Source of the DNA: a virus
Virus genome (UHGV): UHGV-0222783
Strand: one strand, 5' to 3'
DNA: 35,991 nt
Shown here: positions 2,122 through 31,864 of the stretch, one piece after another
Numbering within the stretch: position 1 is the first letter of the stretch
Layout: every line of letters begins with the position of its first letter
Position numbers and translations under genes: made by a program
Notes under the pieces: generated by a model
What the model saw: only the letters and a program-made list of their open reading frames with translations
Databases searched by the model: none
What the model was told of the DNA's origin: nothing

Positions 2122-2288
2122 GGACGGCCTTGTTGTTTCAAAATATCCCAAAGCTTTTCGAGCAAGCTTTTCATTCTTGGTTGTTTAAAGTCTGCTCCGG
2201 TTAAAATGTTTTTTCGTGAATGCTGTACCGATAAAATCGGGTTGAAAGGGCGAACCGATGCCGCCCCTGCAATAGCGAACTGTTGCAT
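2118..2288 (-). CDS. cIII: CIII-like protein (FtsH-inhibitor family)
   Basis: MQQFAIAGAASVRPF...KSLLEKLWDILKQQGRP resembles lambda CIII (MQYAIAG... amphipathic helix ...LLERI...LIDILNQPG). ATG at 2288 preceded by AGGAG. Confidence 0.6.
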   Translation of the reverse strand: MQQFAIAGAASVRPFNPILSVQHSRKNILTGADFKQPRMKSLLEKLWDILKQQGRP

Positions 2289-2473
2289 AGGATGCTCCTT
2301 CTGTTTGATTGCATAACGAAAACGCCTCGAGTGAAGCGTTATTGGTATGCATATAAAAAAGCCCTCACATTGGAGGGCAAAGAAGATTTCCAATAATCAG
2401 AACAAGTCGGCTCCTGTTTAGTTACGAGCGACATTGCTCCGTGTATTCACTCGTTGGAATGAATACACAGTGC

Positions 2474-2662
2474 TTATTCGTCATGCATTTCAGGTAACTC
2501 TTCGTATTCGACGCTCCATACGTTTTCACACCAACTAACTCGCTCATATCTTTTACAGAAAGCAGACCACATAACTAGTGTTCCATCATGGTTTGTTATT
2601 ACTTCTGTAATATCACCAACACTAACAAAACTGGTATTAGAAGCGGTTATTTTTACTTTCAT
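2474..2662 (-). CDS. hypothetical protein (62 aa)
   Basis: ORF track. Start ATG overlaps the upstream stop (TAATG), indicating translational coupling in the PL operon. Confidence 0.4.
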   Translation of the reverse strand: MKVKITASNTSFVSVGDITEVITNHDGTLVMWSAFCKRYERVSWCENVWSVEYEELPEMHDE

Positions 2663-2958
2663 TACTTATCCCCAAGAGCTTTTCTTATTGCTGCGAGACC
2701 TTTATTAACAGCTCCATACCATTCTGGATATGTTGTCGTTGTTCTATTTTTGGTTTGCTTAAGTAATAACTGAAGTGCTTCGAGAAGGTCAGGTGCTGCC
2801 GCTATTAGATTGGCATCTTCAATGCATTGAACTTCCTCACAGATTGCAATATACGAACGCCAGCCTGCGCCATTTTCAAGTGAGTCTGCCTGGATGATTT
2901 TAATCTCATCCCCATCCATCATTATTTCCCACTTACCTTCAGTACCTTTAAATTCCAT
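2662..2958 (-). CDS. Ead/Ea22-like phage protein
   Basis: Contains the motif ANLIAAAPDLLEALQLL, which I recall as typical of Ead/Ea22-like lambdoid early proteins. ATG at 2958 with AGAGG SD. Confidence 0.5.
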   Translation of the reverse strand: MEFKGTEGKWEIMMDGDEIKIIQADSLENGAGWRSYIAICEEVQCIEDANLIAAAPDLLEALQLLLKQTKNRTTTTYPEWYGAVNKGLAAIRKALGDK

Positions 2959-3004
2959 GTTAGCCTCTGTTGTTTATGCCAAAAATAAAGGCCGACTATG
3001 CGGC

Positions 3005-3475
3005 CTAGTAGAATACCCAATTTTCTGTTTCTTGGTTGTGTCCAAAGTTATATTCAATATCTGGTGTTGATGTATCAATATTCTTCATCCCATCAACAAG
3101 AGTTGATACAACAGCCAAATCTTGTTTGATTCTCATTAAATGGTATTTCTTCCGGCGCAATAAACTTTCAATGGCAAGTTTCTTCGTTGGGAATGCAAAA
3201 GATCTTTCTGCATTTTTTGCTACTTTCTTAATTGCATATCTATTTCTCTTTTGTTTCCATTCCTGTAACCACTGATTTGGTGCTGGTTTAAAATTAACAA
3301 TCCAATGCGCAGGAACCAACCATGCATAATGCTCTGTCTGATGAAAAGCTATATATTGAAGTGCGAATATTTTGATTCCATCTTCTTCAACTGTCGCCTG
3401 GAATCTCCAGAAAACAGGCATTCCATCATGTTCAGTTTCTGATTCAGGAAAAGGTACGCTCCATGATTTTGTCAT
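3005..3475 (-). CDS. hypothetical protein (156 aa), PL-operon accessory gene
   Basis: ORF track; ATG at 3475 with GAGGTGA SD. No family recognised by eye. Confidence 0.5.
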   Translation of the reverse strand: MTKSWSVPFPESETEHDGMPVFWRFQATVEEDGIKIFALQYIAFHQTEHYAWLVPAHWIVNFKPAPNQWLQEWKQKRNRYAIKKVAKNAERSFAFPTKKLAIESLLRRKKYHLMRIKQDLAVVSTLVDGMKNIDTSTPDIEYNFGHNQETENWVFY

Positions 3476-3529
3476 ATCTCACCTCAAATAAGTGGCTTGC
3501 TGCGAAAATAAATCCGCTTAAGTTACCTG

Positions 3530-3667
3530 TTATTTATCCCACCAAGTTCCGTATCTATCTATCCAGTTACACCAATCATCGACACTCCATTTTGTTGTGT
3601 CGCATTTTGGCAACTGGCATGAATATCTACCTTCTTTGTAAAGTCGGCGTTTGACTTTCTTGAGCAT
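3530..3667 (-). CDS. small Cys-containing ORF (45 aa), possible zinc-ribbon-like peptide
   Basis: Hand translation MLKKVKRRLYKEGRYSCQLPKCDTTKWSVDDWCNWIDRYGTWWDK. ATG at 3667 with GAGGTGA SD, 8 nt after N stop. Below the ORF-track size cutoff. Confidence 0.3.
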   Translation of the reverse strand: MLKKVKRRLYKEGRYSCQLPKCDTTKWSVDDWCNWIDRYGTWWDK

Positions 3668-3675
3668 GGCTCACC

Positions 3676-4008
3676 TCAATCGTAATAAGCTGGAATTGAT
3701 TTTCCGCGTTGCTTCTGGCGGCCTGAGCAAGTCACACCCATTTCACTGCGTGGCTTGCTGTACCATGTGCGCTGATTCTTGCGCTCAATACGTTGCAGGT
3801 TGCTTTCAATCTGTTCGTGGTATTCAGCCAGCACCGTAAGGTCTATCGGATTCAGTGCGCTTTCTACTCGTGATTTCGGTTTGCGATTCAGCGAGAGAAT
3901 AGGGCGGTTAACTGGTTTTGCGCTTACCCCAACCAACAGGGGATTTGCTGCTTTCCATTGAGCCTGTTTCTCTGCGCGACGTTCGCGGCGGCGTGTTTGT
4001 GCATCCAT
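3676..4008 (-). CDS. N: antitermination protein N (lambda N-like, arginine-rich motif)
   Basis: Internal ATG at 4008 gives MDAQTRRRERRAEKQAQWKAANPLLVGVSAKPV..., the lambda N N-terminus with the Arg-rich boxB-binding motif. AGGAG SD upstream. Confidence 0.85.
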   Translation of the reverse strand: MDAQTRRRERRAEKQAQWKAANPLLVGVSAKPVNRPILSLNRKPKSRVESALNPIDLTVLAEYHEQIESNLQRIERKNQRTWYSKPRSEMGVTCSGRQKQRGKSIPAYYD

Positions 4009-4118
4009 CTGGATTCTCCTGTCAGTTAGCTTTGAGTAACGCGCCGTGATGCTTATCTCCACGGTTGCTGTCTTGCAGCTGCATTTCGCGCTACTCAAAG
4101 CCTTCTGCTTTGAATGCT

Positions 4119-4150
4119 GCCCTTCTTCAGGGCTTAATTTTTAAGAGCAT
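4119..4150 (-). promoter_or_regulatory. nutL (boxA + boxB)
   Basis: Minus-strand reading gives TGCTCTTAA (boxA-like) followed by GCCCTGAAGAAGGGC (boxB hairpin), between PL and N. Confidence 0.7.
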
Positions 4151-4193
4151 CACCTTCATGGTGGTCAGTGCGTCCTGCTGATGGCTTAAAATT

Positions 4194-4261
4194 ACAAGAA
4201 AGATTGTATGTTGTAAACAAGAAATATTGTAAAAAGGGGCGTGAAAAACAAACTCCATTGT
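4194..4261. promoter_or_regulatory. OL operator cluster / PL region (434-type operators)
   Basis: Three 14-bp sites of form ACAA-N6-TTGT: acaagaaagattgt (4194..4207), acaagaaatattgt (4217..4230), acaaactccattgt (4248..4261). Confidence 0.7.
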
Positions 4262-4310
4262 TTTTAAATGAAAAATAGTTTGTTTTTGGTTATCGAGATT
4301 GAGGTGGGGA

Positions 4311-5663
<1,353 letters not shown>

Positions 5664-5671
5664 GACATTCC

Positions 5672-5703
5672 CGCTCTTACACATCCCAGCCCTGAAAAAG
5701 GGC
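5672..5703 (+). promoter_or_regulatory. nutR (boxA + boxB)
   Basis: CGCTCTTA (5672..5679) and boxB hairpin GCCCTGAAAAAGGGC (5689..5703) immediately after cro. Confidence 0.75.
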
Positions 5704-5782
5704 ATCAAATTAAACCACACCTATGGTGTATGCATTTATTTGCATACATTCAATCAATTGTTATCTAAGGAAATACTTACAT

Positions 5783-6061
5783 ATGCAACTTACAAGTACT
5801 CGCAAGAAAGCGAATGCAATTACAAGCAACATCCTGAATCGAATTGCTGTACGTGGTCAGCGAAAGGTTGCCGACGCGTTAGGGGTTAATGAATCGCAAA
5901 TTTCGCGATGGAAAGACAGCTTCATCCCCAAAATGGGAATGCTTCTGGCTGTTCTTGAATGGGGTGTTGAAGACGAGGAGTTGGCGGAACTGGCTAAGCA
6001 AGTAGCCAGAATGCTGACAAAAGAAAAAGCCCCGAAGAACGGCGAATTCTTCGAGGCCTAA
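5783..6061 (+). CDS. cII: CII-family transcriptional activator
   Basis: ...QRKVADALGVNESQISRWKDSFIPKMGMLLAVLEWGV... aligns with lambda CII (..GVDKSQISRWKRDWIPKFSMLLAVLEWGV..). ATG at 5783. Confidence 0.8.
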   Translation: MQLTSTRKKANAITSNILNRIAVRGQRKVADALGVNESQISRWKDSFIPKMGMLLAVLEWGVEDEELAELAKQVARMLTKEKAPKNGEFFEA

Positions 6062-6095
6062 TGTAGAAAGACTGGATCAATCCACGGGAGTAATT

Positions 6096-6257
6096 ATGAC
6101 AAAACGTCGTAAGAAATACCAGGAAAAAGAAGAGATTCGACACCCTGATTCACCTGAGGGATTAGTGGTAGCCGCAGCAAATAACAGGGCGTTCGCAGAG
6201 CGCCTTGTTGGTGTTTACAGACTAGCTAAAGCAGGAGTGAAACATGGGCGTCGTTAA
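6096..6257 (+). CDS. small basic ORF (53 aa) between cII and the O-like gene
   Basis: Hand translation [53 protein letters not shown]. Overlaps the O-like start by 14 nt; no clear SD. Below track cutoff. Confidence 0.25.
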   Translation: MTKRRKKYQEKEEIRHPDSPEGLVVAAANNRAFAERLVGVYRLAKAGVKHGRR

Positions 6258-7074
6258 GTTAGCTGATTACAGGCCTCAACTGGAGGTCGTGGAGCATCGC
6301 GTGGCAGAACTCGAAGATGGCTACACTCGGACTGCAAACACACTGTTAGAAGCCGCCATGCTTTCTGGACTTACTCTACATCAGTTACTGATTGTTATGG
6401 CTGTGTGGCGCAAGACATACGGTTACAACAAAAAAATAGATTGGATCGGAAACGAACAGTTCGCTGAACTCACTGGCATGGCACCAACCAAATGCTCTAC
6501 CGCCAAAAACGAGCTTATCAGAATGGGAGTTCTCATTCAGGTGGGGCGTCAAGTTGGTATGAATACAAACATTTCCGAGTGGAAAACGAAAGTTAACGGA
6601 TTCGGTAAAACATTTACCAATTCGGTAAAACAAACCTTCACCAAATCGGTAAAAAGCAATTTACCGAATCAGTCAAACACAAAAGACAATATACAAAAGA
6701 CAATAAATACAAATACCCCCTTACCCCCTAGCGGGGGCGGCGATGGGCAGGTTAAACCTGAACGTCGCAAGGCAGAACGAATCGACTACGAATCCTTCCT
6801 GAACGCCTACAACACCGAAGTCGGTGACAGACTTCCACACGCTGTTGCGGTCAACGAGAAACGAAAACGCCGCCTGAAGAAAATCATCCCGCAACTGAAA
6901 ACGCCAAACGTGGACGGTTTCAGAGCGTATGTCAGGGCGTTTGTGCATCAGGCCAAGCCGTTTTACTTCGGAGACAACGACACTGGCTGGACGGCAGATT
7001 TTGATTACCTGCTGAGGGAAGATTCGTTAACGGGAGTACGGGAAGGGAAGTTTGCAGACAGGGGGATTGCATGA
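6244..7074 (+). CDS. replication initiator, lambda O N-terminal-domain family (P22 gene 18-like)
   Basis: ...[16 protein letters not shown]...[11 protein letters not shown]...NISEW... parallels the lambda O N-domain. Internal iterons. Followed by and overlapping a helicase gene. Confidence 0.8.
6596..6725. repeat. ori-like iteron array plus A/T-rich tract inside the O-like gene
   Basis: Repeated ttcggtaaaa (6601..6610, 6621..6630), atcggtaaaaa (6645..6655) and inverted ttaccgaatc (6661..6670), followed by the A-rich run aaaagacaatatacaaaagacaataaatacaaata. Confidence 0.6.
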
Positions 7075-8447
7075 GACAGGATATCGAAGCGAGCGTTATC
7101 GGTGGCCTGCTGATTGGTGGATTAACTCCAACTGCCAGTGACGTTCTGGCAACGCTTGAGCCGGAAGCATTTTCAATTCCGCTCTACCGGAAAGCCTTTG
7201 AGGTTATCCGCAAGCAGGCGAGAAACAGAAACCTAATCGACGCGCTGATGGTTGCCGAAGCGTGCGGAGAGGAGCATTTCACGTCAATCCTGATGACCAG
7301 CAAAAACTGCCCGAGTGCCGCAAACCTGAAGGGATATGCCGGAATGGTCGCGGATAACTATCACCGCCGTCTGGTGCTGGAAATCATGGATGAAATGCGT
7401 GAACCAATTCAGAGCGGCACCATCGACGTATCGAGTCAGGCGATGGATGAACTTGTAAAGCGTCTCTCAGCCATCAGAAAGCCCCGTGACGAGGTTAAAC
7501 CTGTACGGTTAGGGGAAATCATTACTGACTATACTGACACGCTTGACAGGCGTCTGAGGAACGGAGAAGAGTCAGATACCCTGAAGACCGGAATTGAAGA
7601 ACTTGATGCCATCACCGGAGGGATGAACGCGGAAGACCTGGTGATAATCGCTGCTCGTCCTGGTATGGGGAAAACCGAACTGGCGCTGAAGATTGCCGAA
7701 GGCGTTGCAAGCCGCGTTATTCCTGGTTCTGACGTCCGGCGCGGGGTATTGATTTTCTCAATGGAAATGAGCGCATTGCAGATTGCAGAGCGAAGCATTG
7801 CCAACGCCGGGAGGATGTCGGTTAGCGTACTGCGAAATCCTGCATCGATGGATGACGAGGGCTGGGCACGTGTTGCTAACGGCATGAGTCAGCTTGCAGA
7901 TTTGGATGTATGGGTAGTCGATGCCTCGCGATTATCGGTCGAAGAAATACGCTCAATCGCAGAACGGCACAAACAGGAAAATCCAAACCTCTCACTCATC
8001 ATGGCGGATTATCTTGGCCTGATTGAGAAGCCGAAAGCAGACCGCAACGACCTCGCAATTGCTCACATCTCCGGAAGCCTGAAGGCGATGGCGAAAGACC
8101 TGAAAACACCGGTTATTTCCCTGAGTCAGCTTTCACGCGATGTTGAGAAGCGACCAAACAAACGCCCGACAAACGCAGATTTGCGTGATTCAGGAAGCAT
8201 TGAACAGGACGCAGACTCAATCATCATGCTCTATCGGGAAGCGGTATATGACGAGAACAGTAGCGCCGCGCCATTTGCTGAAATCATCGTGACGAAAAAC
8301 CGTTTTGGCTCACTTGGTACGGTTTACCAGCGGTTCTGCAACGGACACTTTGTTGCATGTGACCAGGATGAAGCCAGACAGATTTGCACAGCATCAAATG
8401 CACCTGCTGCGCGTGGCAGACGATATGCACAAGGGGCTGACGTATGA
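7071..8447 (+). CDS. DnaB-family replicative helicase (P22 gene 12-like)
   Basis: 458 aa. Walker [16 protein letters not shown], DnaB-like C-terminal RecA fold motifs. ATG overlaps the O-like stop. Confidence 0.9.
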
Positions 8448-11440: not shown

Positions 11441-11625
11441 ACGCCACAATTCAAACGATACCAGAGCTTCTTATCCAGACACGAGGCAATCAGACCGAAG
11501 TGGCAAGGATGCTTTCCTGCGCAAGAGGAACAGTGCTCAAGTACAACCGAGACAGCAAAGGCGAGCGTCACGTAATAGTTAACGGCGTCCTGATGGTCAA
11601 ACAGGGCAAAAGGGGAAGGCCATGA
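11437..11625 (+). CDS. ninH: NinH
   Basis: ...GNQTEVARMLSCARGTVLKYNRD... parallels lambda NinH (GNQTEVARRLKCSRGTVRKY). Confidence 0.75.
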   Translation: MNATIQTIPELLIQTRGNQTEVARMLSCARGTVLKYNRDSKGERHVIVNGVLMVKQGKRGRP

Positions 11626-12245
11626 GACTCGAAAGCGCAGCTAAATTTCATTCGCCAAAAAGCCCGATGATGAGCGACTCACCACGGGCTACGGCTTCTG
11701 ACTCTCTTTCCGGTACTGATGTGATGGCTGCTATGGGGATGGCGCAATCACAAGCCGGATTCGGAATGGCTGCATTCTGTGGTAAGCACGAACTCAGCCA
11801 GAACGACAAACAAAAGGCTATCAACTATCTGATGCAATTTGCACACAAGGTATCGGGGAAATACCGTGGCGTTGCAAAGCTTGAAGGAAATACTAAGGCA
11901 AAGGTACTGCAAGTGCTCGCAACATTCGCTTATGCGGATTATTGCCGTAGTGCCGCGACGCCGGGCGCAAGATGCAGAGATTGCCACGGTACAGGCCGTG
12001 CGGTTGATATAGCCAAAACAGAGCAGTGGGGGAGAGTTGTTGAGAAAGAGTGCGGAAGATGCAAAGGTGTCGGCTATTCAAGAATGCCAGCAAGCGCCGC
12101 ATATCGCGCTGTAACGATGCTAATCCCAAACCTTACTCAACCCACCTGGTCACGCACTGTTAAGCCGCTGTATGACGCTCTGGTGGTGCAATGCCACAAA
12201 GAAGAGTCAATCGCAGACAACATTTTGAATGCGGTCACACGTTAA
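11622..12245 (+). CDS. Q: late antiterminator Q (lambda Q type)
   Basis: 207 aa, MRLESAAKFHSPKSPMMSDSPRATASDSLSGTDVMAAM... with zinc-finger cysteines (CRDCHGTG...CGRCKG), as recalled for lambda Q. Confidence 0.9.
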   Translation: MRLESAAKFHSPKSPMMSDSPRATASDSLSGTDVMAAMGMAQSQAGFGMAAFCGKHELSQNDKQKAINYLMQFAHKVSGKYRGVAKLEGNTKAKVLQVLATFAYADYCRSAATPGARCRDCHGTGRAVDIAKTEQWGRVVEKECGRCKGVGYSRMPASAAYRAVTMLIPNLTQPTWSRTVKPLYDALVVQCHKEESIADNILNAVTR

Positions 12246-12287
12246 CAGCATGATTGCCACGGATGGCAACATATTAACGGCATAATA

Positions 12288-12316
12288 TTGACTTTTTGAA
12301 TAAAGTTGGGTAAATT
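12288..12316 (+). promoter_or_regulatory. late promoter pR' (with downstream qut region)
   Basis: TTGACT (12288..12293), 17-bp spacer, TAAATT (12311..12316), directly after Q as in lambda. Confidence 0.6.
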
Positions 12317-12457
12317 TGACCCAACGATGGGTTAATTCGCTCGTTGTGGTAGTGAGATGAAAAGAGGCGGCGCTTACTACCGATTCCGCCTAGTTGGTCA
12401 CTTCGACGTATCGTCTGGAACTCCAACCATCGCAGGCTGAGAGGTCTGCAAAATGCA

Positions 12458-12519
12458 ATCCCGAAACAGTTCGCAGGTAATAGTTAGAGCCTGCACAACG
12501 GTTTCGGGATTTTTTATTT
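12458..12519 (+). terminator. tR'-like intrinsic terminator
   Basis: Inverted repeat atcccgaaac / gtttcgggat (12458..12467 and 12501..12510) enclosing a smaller hairpin, followed by tttttattt. Confidence 0.6.
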
Positions 12520-12594
12520 GGGTCAGTCGTATAAAGGTCATTACGGAAGGCTGTTAACCTTCTTATCGTGGTTCGAGTCCACGCTGTCCCGCCA
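12520..12594 (+). tRNA. tRNA-like gene, anticodon GUU (Asn-like); may be degenerate
   Basis: Hand-folded cloverleaf: acceptor gggtcag/ctgtccc (one T-T mismatch), D-loop with GG, perfect anticodon stem gaagg/ccttc with loop ctGTTaa, T-arm cgtgg-ttcgagt-ccacg, discriminator G, encoded CCA. Parallels E. coli tRNA-Asn loops. Confidence 0.5.
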
Positions 12595-12599
12595 AATAT

Positions 12600-12675
12600 G
12601 CTGGTTTAGCTCCAATGGTAGAGCGGTCGCCTTGTAAGCGAATGGGTAGCGGTTCAAGTCCGTTAACCAGCACCA
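12600..12675 (+). tRNA. tRNA gene, anticodon UGU (Thr)
   Basis: Perfect 7-bp acceptor gctggtt/aaccagc, U8, D-stem gctc/gagc with GG in loop, anticodon loop cTTGTaa, T-arm agcgg-ttcaagt-ccgtt, discriminator A, encoded CCA. Confidence 0.65.
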
Positions 12676-12917
12676 TAACTGAGCCGTAGCCACTGGCTAT
12701 CCTGAACTCATCAGTGATAGTTACGCTGCGGCCTTCTACACATGACCTTCGTGAAAGCGGGTGGCAAGAGGCTGCGCTAACAACCTCCTGCCGTTTTGCC
12801 CGTGCATATCGGTCACGAACAAATCTGATTACTAAACACAGTAGCCTGGATTTGTTCTATCAGTAATCGACCTTATTCCTAATTAAATAGAGCAAATCCC
12901 CTTATTGGGGGTAAGAC

Positions 12918-13241
12918 ATGAAGATGCCAGAAAAACATGACCTGTTAGCCGCCATTCTCGCGGCAAAGGAACAAGGCATCGGGGCAATCCTTGCGTTTGC
13001 AATGGCGTACCTTCGCGGCAGATATAATGGCGGTGCGTTTACAAAAACAGTAATCGACGCAACGATGTGCGCCATTATCGCCTGGTTCATTCGTGACCTT
13101 CTCGACTTCGCCGGACTAAGTAGCAATCTCGCTTATATAACGAGCGTGTTCATCGGCTACATCGGCACTGACTCGATAGGTTCGCTTATCAAACGCTTCG
13201 CTGCTAAAAAAGCCGGAGTAGAAGATGGTGGAAATCAATAA
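12918..13241 (+). CDS. S: class I holin S (lambda S107/S105 type, dual-start MKM)
   Basis: [45 protein letters not shown]... matches lambda S as recalled. Dual-start motif Met1-Lys2-Met3. Confidence 0.95.
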
Positions 13242-13701
13242 TCAACGTAAGGCGTTCCTCGATATGCTGGCGTGGTCAGAGGGAACTGATAACGGACGTC
13301 AGAAAACCAGAAATCATGGTTATGACGTCATTGTTGGCGGAGAGCTATTCACTGATTACTCCGATCACCCTCGCAAACTTGTCACGCTAAACCCCAAACT
13401 CAAATCAACAGCAGCCGGACGTTACCAGCTTCTTTCCCGTTGGTGGGATGCCTATCGTAAGCAGCTTGGCCTGAAAGACTTCTCTCCTAAAAGCCAGGAT
13501 GCTGTTGCATTGCAGCAGATTAAGGAGCGTGGCGCTTTGCCGATGATTGATCGCGGTGATATCCGTCAGGCTATCGACCGTTGCAGCAATATCTGGGCTT
13601 CACTGCCGGGCGCTGGTTATGGTCAGTTCGAGCATAAGGCTGACAGCCTGATTGCAAAATTCAAAGAGGCTGGCGGAACGGTCAGAGAGATTGAGGTATG
13701 A
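13225..13701 (+). CDS. R: endolysin R (lytic transglycosylase, lambda R type)
   Basis: 158 aa, [45 protein letters not shown]... matches lambda R as recalled. Confidence 0.95.
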
Positions 13702-14135
13702 GCAGAGTAACCGCGATTATCTCCGCTCTGGTTATTTGCTTCATCGTCTGCCTGTCATGGGCTGTTAATCATTACCGTGATAACGCCATCGCCTACAAAG
13801 AACAGCGTGATAAGGCCGCATCCACAATTGCTGACATGCAGAAGCGTCAACGTGATGTAGCAGAACTCGACGCCAGATACACAAAGGAGCTTGCTGATGC
13901 TAACGCGACTATCGAAAGTCTCCGTGCTGATGTTTCTGCTGGGCGTAAGCGCCTGCAAGTCGCCGCCACCTGTGCAAAGTCAACGACCGGAGCCAGCAGC
14001 ATGGGCGATGGAGAAAGCCCAAGACTTACAGCAGATGCTGAACTCAATTATTACCGTCTCCGAAGTGGAATCGACAGGATAACCGCGCAGGTTAACTACC
14101 TGCAGGAATACATCAGGACGCAATGCCTTCGATGA
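13698..14135 (+). CDS. Rz: spanin inner-membrane subunit Rz
   Basis: N-terminal TM segment, coiled-coil body; similar to lambda Rz ([14 protein letters not shown]...[10 protein letters not shown]). Confidence 0.85.
13897..14082 (+). CDS. Rz1: spanin outer-membrane lipoprotein Rz1 (embedded in Rz, +1 frame)
   Basis: ATG 13897 after AAGGAG. Signal peptide with lipobox ...LLGVSAC, Pro-rich mature part ([13 protein letters not shown]); fully nested in Rz. Confidence 0.8.
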
Positions 14136-14513
14136 TAGCGATAATTTTACTCATCATCCTTCACATCTGGCTCTGTAGACAGGGTGGTGATCACTTCTGG
14201 AGTGAATCCAGATTAAACATCTCATTGCTGATGCTTGATATTGAGCATCTGGCGCGCGGTAAGGGGCTGCGTTGAGATAAGAGCCAGTTCATTACAAAGC
14301 CTATCTACTGGTGGGCTTGATAATGAAACCGGAATTTATTCTGGGTAACCAGTTACGGCAGTACAGCGAAACAACCCAAGCCAGAAAGTGGGGAAATAAC
14401 ACTGTCAGCCACTGAAAGATGAACCTCCTGCCTTATGGCAAAAAAGATTCTTTGTGGTGGCGGACTGATGGAAAGACATCCTAATCAAGCAACCACTCTA
14501 CAGGGTCATAATT

Positions 14514-14885
14514 ATGAACGACAAGCAAATTGAAAAAGAAATCGCAGCCAAGGGTAAGACGGCGGCTCGCGTTACTCCTGAACACATTGCCAGCATAATC
14601 GCCAGCGAACATTACTTTACGGCCGCTGATGGTGCTCGCTTTGCTCATGTGCAGAGAAGCGAAACATACAGCGTAAAAATCCCAGACCAGCCTGACGAGC
14701 TGGAGCTGCTGACATTCTGCGTTCTGGTGCTGAAGAATGGCTTTACGGTCACCGGGGAAAGCGCCTGCGCCAGCCCAGAGAACTTCGATGAAGAAATCGG
14801 GCGCAAGATTGCTCGCCAGAATGCTGTAAACAAAATCTGGATGCTTGAAGGTTACTTGCTGAAGCAGAAGCTAAGCGAACAGTAG
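14514..14885 (+). CDS. hypothetical protein (123 aa) between lysis and packaging modules
   Basis: ORF track; ATG 14514. Flanked by similar ~35-bp hairpin-containing direct repeats. Confidence 0.5.
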   Translation: MNDKQIEKEIAAKGKTAARVTPEHIASIIASEHYFTAADGARFAHVQRSETYSVKIPDQPDELELLTFCVLVLKNGFTVTGESACASPENFDEEIGRKIARQNAVNKIWMLEGYLLKQKLSEQ

Positions 14886-14988
14886 TTATTACAAAAGCCA
14901 TTCCCTACAGAGTGGCTTTGATAATGGCTTATACCCTACACGGGATAACTTAACTGATATCCCTTTTAACGGATAAACGGAGCCAACA

Positions 14989-26952: not shown

Positions 26953-28964
26953 TGAAAGTAACTGCAAATGGTAAGACATTTACCTTTCCTGATGGTACGA
27001 GCACGGAAGATATTGGGTCCGCCATTGATGAGTATTTTGCTGGTCAGTCAGCGCCAACACAACAAGGTGTTCAGCAATCGCCAGCAGACAACTCACTTGC
27101 ATCAGGATATGCACAGCTTGCCACTCAGCAGAAGGAAGGACTAGATCGCTCTGCTGAGCAAGGGGCTGTTTTAGGTGCTGCAATGCGCGATGCCGTTACC
27201 GGTGAAAGCCGAATGACACCAGAAATGGAGAGACTGCAAAATGTTGGGGCTGCCCCTGAGTTGAACTCACTAAGCATGGATGCCCTGAAGGCTGGATGGT
27301 CTCAACTTTTCGGCTCCGACGCGTCTCAGGAAAAGATTCTTCAGAGTATGGGGGCGAAATTAAGGCAGGATGAGAAGGGTAACACTATCGTTTCCCTGCC
27401 ATCCGGTGATTATGCCCTGAACAAGCCAGGTTTATCACCGCAAGACCTGACTTCGTTTCTTGCTAATGCGTTAGCGTTCACACCAGCGGGCAGGGCTGGA
27501 ACGGTGCTTGGTGCCATAGGGAAATCAGCTGCTACAGATTTAGCACTACAGGGTGGCACCAGCCTTGCTGGCGGAGAAGATATTGATCCTGCACAAACGG
27601 TAATTTCTGCTGGCATTGGTGGTGTTGGCAAGGGGCTGGAAAATACAGTTAGTGCGGTTTCCAGGGCTGTTCGCGGTGAGATGTCACCGGAAGCAAAGGC
27701 TGCTGTCGATTTTGCGTCGGAAAGAAACCTGCCGTTAATGACCAGTGACACGCTGAAAGATAAAACCTTTATGCAGAGTCAGGCTCAGACATTAGGCGAA
27801 AGAGTTCCTTTTTTTGGAACCGGTAAGAATCGGCTGAATCAACAACAAGCACGAGAAAATTTAGTCAGAACATTTAGCGATGGTCTGGGTGGCATTTCTG
27901 ATAAACAGCTTTATGAATCTGCGACTAAAGGGCAACAAAAATTCATTGAGGCAGCAGGAAAGCGATATAACCGCATAATTGACGCTATGGGGGATACCCC
28001 TGTCGATCTCTCAAACACGGTAAAAGCTATCGACAATCAGATTGCCGTGTTAAGCCGCCCGGGCAAATCTCAGGATAGAGCCGCGGTAAAAGTCTTGCAG
28101 CAATTTAAAGACGATATCACCAGCGGACCCAATGACCTGCGTCTGGCGAGAGAAAACAGAACTGACCTTCGAAAGCGGTTCATGAATTCAAACGAGACTG
28201 TTGATAAAGACACGCTCCAGAAAGCCAGCGATATTGTCTACAAGGCATATACAGCGGATATGAAAAAAGCAGTATCCCAAAAACTAGGCTCAGAAGAAGC
28301 TGCCAATATGTCTAGGGTTGATCGCTCATGGGCTAGATTCAATGACATGATGGGAAGAACGCGCGTTCAAAAGGCAATAGCCAGCGGCAAGGCTACACCT
28401 GAGGATGTAACAAAACTCGTTTTTAGCCAAAACCCATCAGAACGTTCTCAGCTTTACAGGCTTCTGGATGACAATGGTAGGCAAAACGCACGAGCAGCCA
28501 TAGTTCAGAATGCTGTAGATAAGGCGACTGATCCGTCTGGAAATATTAGTGTTGAAAAGTTTATTAATGCGTTACACCGGAACAGGAAGCAATCAGCAAC
28601 TTTCTTTAAAGGCGTACATGGAAAGGAACTGGACGGCGTTATTAAATACCTCAACGATACAAGACACGCGGCAAAAGCGAACGTTCAAAACTTAAATGGT
28701 CAGCAGCTTTATGGATTGTTAGTTGGTGGTGGCATCATAAACGCAGCAGTATTAGCGGGGATGCTAAAAACGGCTGCGTTTGTTGTTCCTGCTGCTGGTG
28801 TCGTAGGAGGAGCTGCGAAGGCATACGAAAGCCCTGTTATACGAAATGCCTTGTTACGTCTGGCAAATACGCCAAAAGGTAGCACAGCATATGACAGAGC
28901 GATCAGTACGGTCACACAATCGCTCACCAGAGTCGCACAGGCATCACAAAAAGAAGCTCAATAA
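26949..28964 (+). CDS. ejection protein (P22 gp16-like)
   Basis: 671 aa, gene order; C-terminal hydrophobic Gly-rich segment ([34 protein letters not shown]). Confidence 0.6.
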
Positions 28965-31632: not shown

Positions 31633-31864
31633 TTCGCTTGGATGCAGTAGTCAAAGAGATTGCGATTACCATTTTAAGACCAAATTTTGTTCATGGCGAA
31701 TCATTTGGCACGAACGAAAAATTGAGAAGAGAAAGAGTATTCAGTGGCAAGCGCACGTTTTCAGAAGTGATGCTTGATGCGGCAAAGAAATCAAAACAGT
31801 GAAGCCCCAACTGCTGGAACAGTCAGGGCTTCGGTTGTCGGTAAATCCGTGGAGAAAAACCAAC

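Follow-up and report, generated by a model that had tools for sequence, protein, structure and literature searches.

Two tRNA genes lie in tandem on the plus strand between the late terminator tR' and the holin gene S of UHGV virus genome UHGV-0222783, the whole 35,991 bp of which were analysed and are referred to below as the window. ARAGORN calls these two and no other tRNA genes in the window: upstream, tRNA-Asn(GUU) at 12520-12594 (75 nt, discriminator G73), and tRNA-Thr(UGU) downstream, at 12600-12675 (76 nt, discriminator A73). Both encode their CCA ends, and they are separated by a 5-nt spacer, AATAT (12595-12599, plus strand). Both also score far above the gathering score (29) of the curated Rfam covariance model RF00005, with 55.3 bits (E=1.9e-9) for tRNA-Asn and 61.2 bits (E=4.6e-11) for tRNA-Thr. 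The two calls bear out a preliminary description of this DNA, made from the letters alone, which had proposed two tandem tRNA-like genes at this place, 5 nt apart and with encoded CCA ends. It had read the stems correctly as well. Pairing is perfect in the acceptor stem of tRNA-Thr, and tRNA-Asn has one mismatch in the acceptor stem (U4.U69) and one in the D-stem (U13.U22). The anticodon stem of tRNA-Thr (GUCGC/GCGAA) carries a G27.A43 mismatch. Both anticodon loops are of 7 nt, CUGUUAA in tRNA-Asn and CUUGUAA in tRNA-Thr, with U33 and a purine at position 37, and the T-arms, GGTTCGAGTCC and GGTTCAAGTCC, both conform to the GGTTCRAnTCC pattern. Asparaginyl-tRNA synthetase recognises the G34-U35-U36 anticodon and G73, and threonyl-tRNA synthetase recognises G1-C72, C2-G71, G35 and U36; these identity elements are present in the respective window tRNAs. 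RefSeq/PGAP labels the two genes tRNA-Asn and tRNA-Thr, not pseudogenes, in the E. coli genomes listed, and tRNAscan-SE, applied in a published study to phage SfI with a block 100% identical to the window's, calls both (PMC3636060). Both tRNA genes are genuine.

The window phage is temperate and P22-like and belongs to the genus Lederbergvirus. It is most similar to Escherichia phage phiv205-1, matching it at 98-99.9% outside a swapped block (2122-8443) and a few smaller patches. The window contains a P22-type sar RNA, erf, and abc2, encoding an anti-RecBCD protein (553-849; Pfam E=3.3e-62). Upstream from the tRNA genes lies the gene for a late-gene antiterminator, Q, of the lambda type (11622..12245, plus strand; 207 aa; Pfam Antiterm PF03589, E=1.3e-57); in phiv205-1, HK446 and Kapi1 the gene bears the annotation "late gene regulator Q". 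Next comes the late promoter pR' (12288..12316, plus strand; TTGACT, 17 nt, TAAATT), which falls on the feature marked "similar to lambda PR'" in HK446, followed by the intrinsic terminator tR' (12458..12519, plus strand), made of a hairpin at 12458-12510 and a U-run at 12511-12519 and marking the end of a 6S-type leader RNA. A simple scan listed no tR' on the plus strand; the terminator was confirmed by folding, the 53-nt hairpin giving an RNA fold of -28.3 kcal/mol (z=-4.0). Up to window position 12517 (lambda 44781) the segment is colinear with lambda and nearly identical to it, and it is because of this near-identity that the long hairpin and U-run are identified as tR'. The tRNA-Asn gene starts directly 3' of the U-run.

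Beyond the tRNA genes, a lambda-like untranslated late leader (12677..12917, plus strand), near-identical in lambda, Sf6 and the window, extends to S, the holin gene (12918-13241, plus strand; Pfam Phage_holin_3_1, E=2.4e-30). S is followed by R (13225-13701) and Rz (13698-14135), plus-strand open reading frames with annotated homologues in Sf6, lambda and phiv205-1. S-R-Rz (12918..14135) head the protein-coding part of the late operon and lie downstream of the tRNAs; no protein gene was found between the tRNAs and the start of S at 12918. Two open reading frames of 50 aa each that overlap the block, at 12541-12693 (minus strand) and 12714-12866 (plus strand), were not regarded as genes. A scan of positions 11500-13500 for sigma-70-like sites returned pR' alone, with no promoter-like site between pR' and the tRNA genes, and the idea that the tRNA genes have a promoter of their own was discarded on this ground. 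As pR' is the sole promoter-like site upstream, Q-dependent readthrough of tR' is the natural reading of how the tRNAs are expressed; the preliminary description had expected as much, and its proposal appears likely. The tRNAs and S-R-Rz would then be co-transcribed. In the description of phage L, the choice between excision of the tRNAs from the late mRNA and transcription from their own promoter was left undecided (PMC8022706).

Alignment to lambda, combined with an ungapped walk from the boundaries, delimits a mosaic block of 159 bp (12518..12676, plus strand) that takes the place of 163 bp in lambda (44782-44944). The sequence on both sides of the tRNA block is about 97% identical to lambda, so that the remainder of the Q-S region is indeed lambda-like, as had been proposed, and the tRNA segment itself is not ordinary lambda sequence. 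The two sequences part within the tR' U-run, at its last bases. No tRNA-like match was returned by cmscan (E<=10) in lambda 44782-44944, and ARAGORN calls no tRNA gene in lambda; on these results we rejected the idea that lambda's 163 bp are a decayed tRNA pair. As the lambda segment is unrelated, the tRNA block is a replacement, and not the clean insertion into the late leader that the preliminary description had supposed. In phage 21, Sf6 and phage L, which have a different antiterminator module, homology to the window is confined to the region from the tR' U-run onward, which places the block at a mosaic junction.

The cassette is already known. A block of 166 bp is shared at 98-100% identity by phage 21, Sf6, SfI, Kapi1, mEp506, HK446, BTP1, Oslo, SPN9CC and many further phages; for phage 21, Sf6, SfI, BTP1 and Kapi1 the figure is 98.8-100%. 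Both tRNAs are annotated in the majority of the phages that share it, and the annotated pair is known from dozens of phages of the lambdoid and P22-like kinds. Among 5426 complete E. coli genomes, 369 have the block, its genes labelled tRNA-Asn and tRNA-Thr. The tRNA-Asn gene is identical over 75/75 positions to its counterparts in phage 21 (sequence taken from GenBank OL657228), Sf6, L and JLK-2012, and its sequence is the same whether the phage is one of E. coli, Shigella or Salmonella. The tRNA-Thr gene matches phage 21 and Sf6 at 75/76 positions, the sole difference being G26 in the window for A26, and the spacer reads AACAT in phage 21, Sf6 and L. The same slot holds other tRNA sets in JLK-2012 (Asn-Thr-Gly) and in Klebsiella phage Mulock (Asn-Phe-Thr-Arg). 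The tRNAs were noted as "similar to phage 21" in the Sf6 GenBank record of 2004, and the 2013 description of SfI reported a tandem tRNA pair downstream of Q, with the same arrangement in Sf6, ST64T, PS3 and p21 (PMC3636060). The phage L paper of 2020 pointed out that P22 is devoid of tRNAs and that some P22-like phages have them in this slot (PMC8022706). A preprint of 2026 on codon usage and the number of tRNAs in phages does not specifically treat the cassette (PMC13015707). What is known includes a published function for a near-identical tRNA-Thr.

This function concerns P2-OLD, the effector of the classic P2-lambda interference (Govande et al. 2025, PMC12445682). P2-OLD is activated by RecBCD inhibition and kills lambda-infected cells. 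Its target is host tRNA-Thr(UGU), which it cleaves in the anticodon stem, at the paired CNG motifs of positions 28-30 and 40-42, and phage tRNA-Thr(UGU) genes rescue cells from it (PMC12445682). The rescue is partial and was obtained by expression from plasmids; for another phage tRNA-Thr in the same study, it required decoding of ACA by a UGU anticodon (PMC12445682). Of the tRNA-Thr of phage 21, the authors write that it "also protected against P2-OLD"; in vitro it withstands cleavage, a property ascribed to a shorter anticodon stem and to changes near both cut sites, including C28U/G42A (PMC12445682).

The window tRNA-Thr has the same traits. Host thrU has the anticodon stem ACUGA/UCAGU, with CUG/CAG at positions 28-30/40-42, where the window tRNA has UCG/CGA; U28 is paired with A42, G27.A43 is unpaired, and there is no CNG at 28-30 or at 40-42. 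Thus it combines the two features of the P2-OLD-resistant tRNA-Thr class (Thr21/Thr6), namely a UGU anticodon and altered CNG motifs together with a shortened stem. Its one difference from the phage 21 molecule, at position 26, lies outside the anticodon stem. Judging from these positions, the window tRNA-Thr is consistent with a resistance to P2-OLD like that of the phage 21 tRNA-Thr, the molecule assayed having A26 and that of the window G26. Paired CNG motifs are kept in the tRNA-Thr of P1, Cyrano and KpF5. As the absence of CNG, or of U39, is expected by chance in most unrelated tRNAs, the stem differences are consistent with evasion of cleavage, not diagnostic of it. The Abc2 protein of the window phage, being an anti-RecBCD function, matches the known trigger of P2-OLD. 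The order of events is a problem for a role in defence: the trigger, RecBCD inhibition, comes early and the tRNAs would appear only after Q, a gene that itself contains four ACA codons.

A second nuclease may be relevant to the pair. [quoted passage not shown] 2025, PMC12409363). Phage T5 carries variants of the Lys, Thr and Asn tRNAs that jointly neutralise PARIS; its resistant tRNA-Lys is altered at positions 39 and 41 and is needed to bypass the PARIS system studied (PMC12409363). Positions 36-41 read UAAUCC in host tRNA-Asn and UAACCU in the window, and UAAUCA in host tRNA-Thr and UAAGCG in the window, so that both window tRNAs have substitutions by the 40|41 cut site that break the U36-A-A-U39 motif, a feature that is weakly diagnostic. 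The paired CNG of host asnT (CGG/CCG) is likewise replaced in the window tRNA-Asn by AAG/CUU, without CNG. The prime AriB target, tRNA-Lys(UUU), has no ARAGORN call in the whole window, which holds Thr and Asn alone of the full AriB target set (Lys, Thr, Asn). A cassette without tRNA-Lys(UUU) could not alone defeat the PARIS system studied. In other phages, the tRNA-Asn of Mulock retains paired CNG motifs and that of P1 retains UAAUCA. From these comparisons, the window tRNAs may evade AriB, tRNA-Asn acting as a putative resistant replacement. A third nuclease, HepS of Gifsy-1, cuts Thr tRNAs in the anticodon loop; evasion of HepS was also considered, and since the loop of the phage tRNA-Thr (CUUGUAA) is identical to that of the host, none is apparent.

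Pairs of the same specificity recur in unrelated phages. Asn(GUU) and Thr(UGU) genes lie 2 nt apart in P1 and in the T5-like phage Cyrano; the N4-like phage Jura has Asn-Ser-Thr, and Klebsiella lambdoid phages have Asn-Phe-Thr, to which Arg is added in Mulock. The Thr genes of P1, Cyrano and Jura are 79-86% identical to that of the window. Their Asn genes are 58-63% identical to the lambdoid Asn, which is no closer to them than to the host gene. Separate Asn lineages within the same specificity pair imply that the Asn and Thr combination was assembled more than once, and such repeated assembly would fit a selective pressure from one family of nucleases that attacks this set of tRNAs. A tentative proposal, to which we give somewhat less than an even chance, is that the Asn-Thr tandem serves temperate enterobacterial phages as a dedicated counter-defence cassette of two pieces, directed against the Toprim tRNases (P2-OLD, PARIS AriB) of P2-like prophages and P4-like satellites, in which tRNA-Asn would stand in, resistant to the nuclease, for a secondary target. 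Lambdoid phages, the P1/T5-like/N4-like group and T5, each pairing a Thr(UGU) with an unrelated Asn gene, would have arrived at the combination independently. If this is true, the repeated assembly of Asn with Thr points to one nuclease family as the selector, and not to codon usage.

The reading we favour, with a probability of roughly 0.6, is broader: the window genes would be functional, late-expressed phage tRNAs whose chief value is to survive the tRNA-cutting defences of P2-like prophages and P4-like satellites, the supply of an ACA decoder coming second. RNA polymerase starting from pR' would halt at tR' unless modified by Q; the Q-modified polymerase would pass tR' and transcribe both tRNAs before S-R-Rz and the virion genes. 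Host RNase P and host 3'-end processing enzymes would release the tRNAs from the transcript, and the host AsnRS and ThrRS would charge them. The phage tRNAs would then decode AAC/AAU and ACA in late protein synthesis and replace host tRNAs cut by P2-OLD or AriB, their anticodon stems being different at the positions recognised. As a second, compatible benefit, they would provide more of a scarce ACA decoder to a phage whose use of ACA is about three times that of its host. Q-dependent expression, processing and charging are what we infer for the window tRNAs from their position and sequence. The defence role is published for the phage 21 tRNA-Thr against P2-OLD; for tRNA-Asn and PARIS it is put forward here as a probable extension of that role.

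The main competitor is codon supplementation, the role that the preliminary description suggested and that the SfI (PMC3636060) and phage L (PMC8022706) papers also took up. In its pure form, the tRNAs only supply decoders for codons favoured by the phage, making late proteins faster to synthesise, with no part in defence. The codon counts lend it some weight. ACA occurs 17.3 times per 1000 codons in the window late genes (30% of Thr codons) and 5.2 times per 1000 (10% of Thr) in a host sample of 39 E. coli K-12 genes, making it 3.3x commoner in the phage than in that sample; in lambda late genes the figures are 8.1 per 1000 and 11.5% of Thr. Host tRNA-ThrU is the sole decoder of ACA in E. coli (PMC12445682), and the SfI authors reported the same ACA bias (17.3% vs 7.1%; PMC3636060). 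Asn codons make up 47.9 per 1000 in the window late genes and 47.6 per 1000 in all window genes, as compared with 35.3 in the host sample (a factor of 1.35) and 35.9 in lambda late genes. The coat-like gene is rich in AAC (15 AAC, 3 AAU), and an argument from AAC has been made in the phage L paper (PMC8022706).

Against this stands P22: its late genes, homologous to those of the window, use ACA at 13.1 per 1000 (22% of Thr) and Asn at 53.4 per 1000, yet P22 has no tRNA genes. With usage so similar in a phage without tRNAs, codon usage is insufficient by itself, and we rejected it as the sole explanation. Furthermore, ACA is just as frequent in the window genes as far as Q (17.4 per 1000, 34% of Thr; Asn 45.9 per 1000), and these early genes are translated at a time when the tRNAs cannot yet have been made. 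Asn codons are not rare, and the SfI authors found no Asn codon bias and called the role of tRNA-Asn unclear (PMC3636060). Codon supply also leaves unexplained the anticodon-stem differences at positions recognised by the nucleases, including the conserved G27.A43, as well as the recurrence of Asn with Thr in unrelated phages. Of the late-gene codon supplementation suggested in the preliminary description, the ACA bias bears out a part; for Asn the enrichment is modest. Codon supply is a plausible benefit, yet it explains neither which phages carry the cassette nor the presence of Asn; as the whole account, it seems to us unlikely, though worth keeping in view.

Far less probable is that the genes are neutral passengers or decaying relics, the block hitchhiking with the lysis module by mosaic recombination and the mismatched tRNA-Asn being a pseudogene. 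Many near relatives do without the block (lambda, HK630, IME10, P22), degenerate forms exist (ARAGORN does not call the second tRNA of phage L and ST64T or the tRNA-Thr of JLK-2012), and the U4.U69 and U13.U22 mismatches of tRNA-Asn could be taken for decay. The comparison with diverged relatives speaks against it. Double changes that keep the pairing affect 5 of 20 pairs in tRNA-Thr (eight relatives) and 10 of 19 in tRNA-Asn (six relatives). In Mulock, for instance, compensated pairs are found at 6-67, 7-66 and 28-42 of tRNA-Asn and at 3-70 and 6-67 of tRNA-Thr, and the same phage keeps both Asn mismatches and the Thr G27.A43; the latter is retained in phage 21, Mulock and Flyfo despite compensated changes elsewhere. 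This pattern of substitution indicates that both tRNA genes are under structural constraint, the two Asn mismatches being themselves conserved. The high RF00005 scores, the identity of tRNA-Asn across phages of three host genera, the hundreds of E. coli genomes that carry the block and the activity of the phage 21 tRNA-Thr in rescue assays (PMC12445682) are equally at odds with the passenger account.

Just as improbable is an RNA-processing or recombination element, that is, RNase P sites at which the 6S-type leader is cut off and the 5' end and stability of the late mRNA are fixed, or a conserved sequence for exchange between Q/qut and lysis modules: the block does lie precisely at the changeover in homology between Q/qut modules of the lambda type and of the 21 type, in a slot that accommodates other tRNA sets, but the lambda and P22 late operons are expressed with no tRNA in the slot, anticodons, identity elements and encoded CCA are kept although a mere cleavage site would not need them, and processing is in any case a side effect of making tRNAs.

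The cassette is a worked example of a small feature long read as codon supplementation that now has a better-supported role in conflict between phages, specifically in P2-lambda interference. The window phage, in which the cassette lies in a natural background of lambda Q and lambda S, is suited to testing the contribution of the tRNAs against P2-OLD and PARIS.

Among known systems, the PARIS-evading set of T5 resembles the window pair in having two of three anticodons in common and substitutions at positions 39 and 41, by the AriB cut. It differs in that the tRNAs are 61-63% identical to those of the window and include tRNA-Lys, and in that T5 is virulent, with more than 20 tRNA genes, whereas the window phage is temperate and has two. 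The pairs of P1, Cyrano and Jura lie outside any Q-dependent leader, unlike the window pair, and the Thr genes of P1 and Cyrano have a full 5-bp anticodon stem with CNG motifs, unlike the window tRNA-Thr. Stx phages of the 933W type carry ileZ-argN-argO upstream of stx, in the late leader downstream of Q, pR' and tR'. In that slot, Ile and Arg tRNAs, under a different Q type, are followed by a toxin operon; the window has Asn and Thr tRNAs, and no stxAB precedes S. The contrast with Stx phages drawn in the preliminary description holds in so far as S follows directly with no toxin; it does not point to an oddity, this being the standard arrangement of phage 21, Sf6, SfI and BTP1. Since the cassette is widespread in non-Stx phages, the state without a toxin is the ordinary one and the Stx arrangement the special case. 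The cassettes of Sf6, SfI, Kapi1, BTP1, HK446, mEp506 and phiv205-1 likewise lie between Q and the holin gene and show no difference of substance, the tRNA genes of HK446 and phiv205-1 being present and simply unannotated. In phage 21 (OL657228 39591-39746) the two genes stand in the same order directly after tR', with the same U28-A42 pair and G27.A43 mismatch, and differ by one base in the Thr gene (A26 vs G26) and one in the spacer; the surroundings are different, the phage 21 cassette being associated with Q21 and a pinholin/SAR-endolysin cassette and that of the window with the lambda-type Q, qut, tR' and S-R-Rz.

[quoted passage not shown] The Thr(UGU) genes of these unrelated phage groups are related (79-86% identical to that of the phage under study), whereas the Asn(GUU) genes constitute separate lineages, those of P1, Cyrano and Jura being only 58-63% identical to the lambdoid Asn gene. 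This pattern in the sequences suggests that the Asn-Thr pairing was assembled repeatedly.

The phage under study specifies a full-length sar antisense RNA on the minus strand (31798-31864; Rfam RF00262, 83.9 bits, E=2e-16), which identifies a P22-type immI (ant/arc) region. The phage is therefore P22-like, with lambda-type Q and lysis genes. It is 98-99.9% identical to Escherichia phage phiv205-1, its closest relative, outside two unmatched blocks, one comprising the immunity and replication genes (2122-8443), the other following the lysis genes (13814-14909). These blocks are typical of lambdoid mosaicism.

Two recombination-related genes are also encoded on the minus strand: abc2, for P22 anti-RecBCD protein 2 (553-849; Pfam E=3.3e-62), and a gene for a recombinase of the Erf type (1256-1861; E=3.5e-44). 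RecBCD inhibitors are a known class of triggers for the activation of P2-OLD, the nuclease that cuts host tRNA-Thr(UGU) (PMC12445682). Judging from sequence, the abc2 product, a RecBCD inhibitor, would fall within this class, and the phage tRNA-Thr would resist P2-OLD. P22 lacks the tRNA cassette and carries gene 17 (28414-28725 in the P22 sequence, L016), annotated in the record as permitting growth on a Fels-2 lysogen. Thus, P22 may counter P2-type exclusion by means of a protein in place of tRNAs. Fels-2 is a P2-like prophage.

The cassette exists in variant forms. The version found in Salmonella phage L is 89% identical, and the same arrangement is seen in ST64T. The second tRNA of these phages (L010, the phage L sequence, 786-857) combines Thr-type acceptor and D arms with an anticodon arm of another type. 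Its annotation is tRNA-Leu(TAA); it scores 42 bits against Rfam and elicits no ARAGORN call. Either its anticodon arm may have been exchanged or the gene may be in decay. In Escherichia phage JLK-2012 (L011), the tRNA-Thr gene (1586-1661) is a chimera, identical to the phage type in its 5′ part and resembling the host gene thrU from position 26 onward, except that two mismatches leave an anticodon stem of only 3 bp. It is followed by an additional tRNA-Gly(UCC) gene (1665-1739) and then by tciA and tciB. The late region of JLK-2012, a prophage-like phage, also contains a strong match (107 bits) to the enterobacterial sRNA family STnc100 (2566-2738), downstream from tciB. As in JLK-2012, tciA is found downstream from the Asn-Thr pair in P1.
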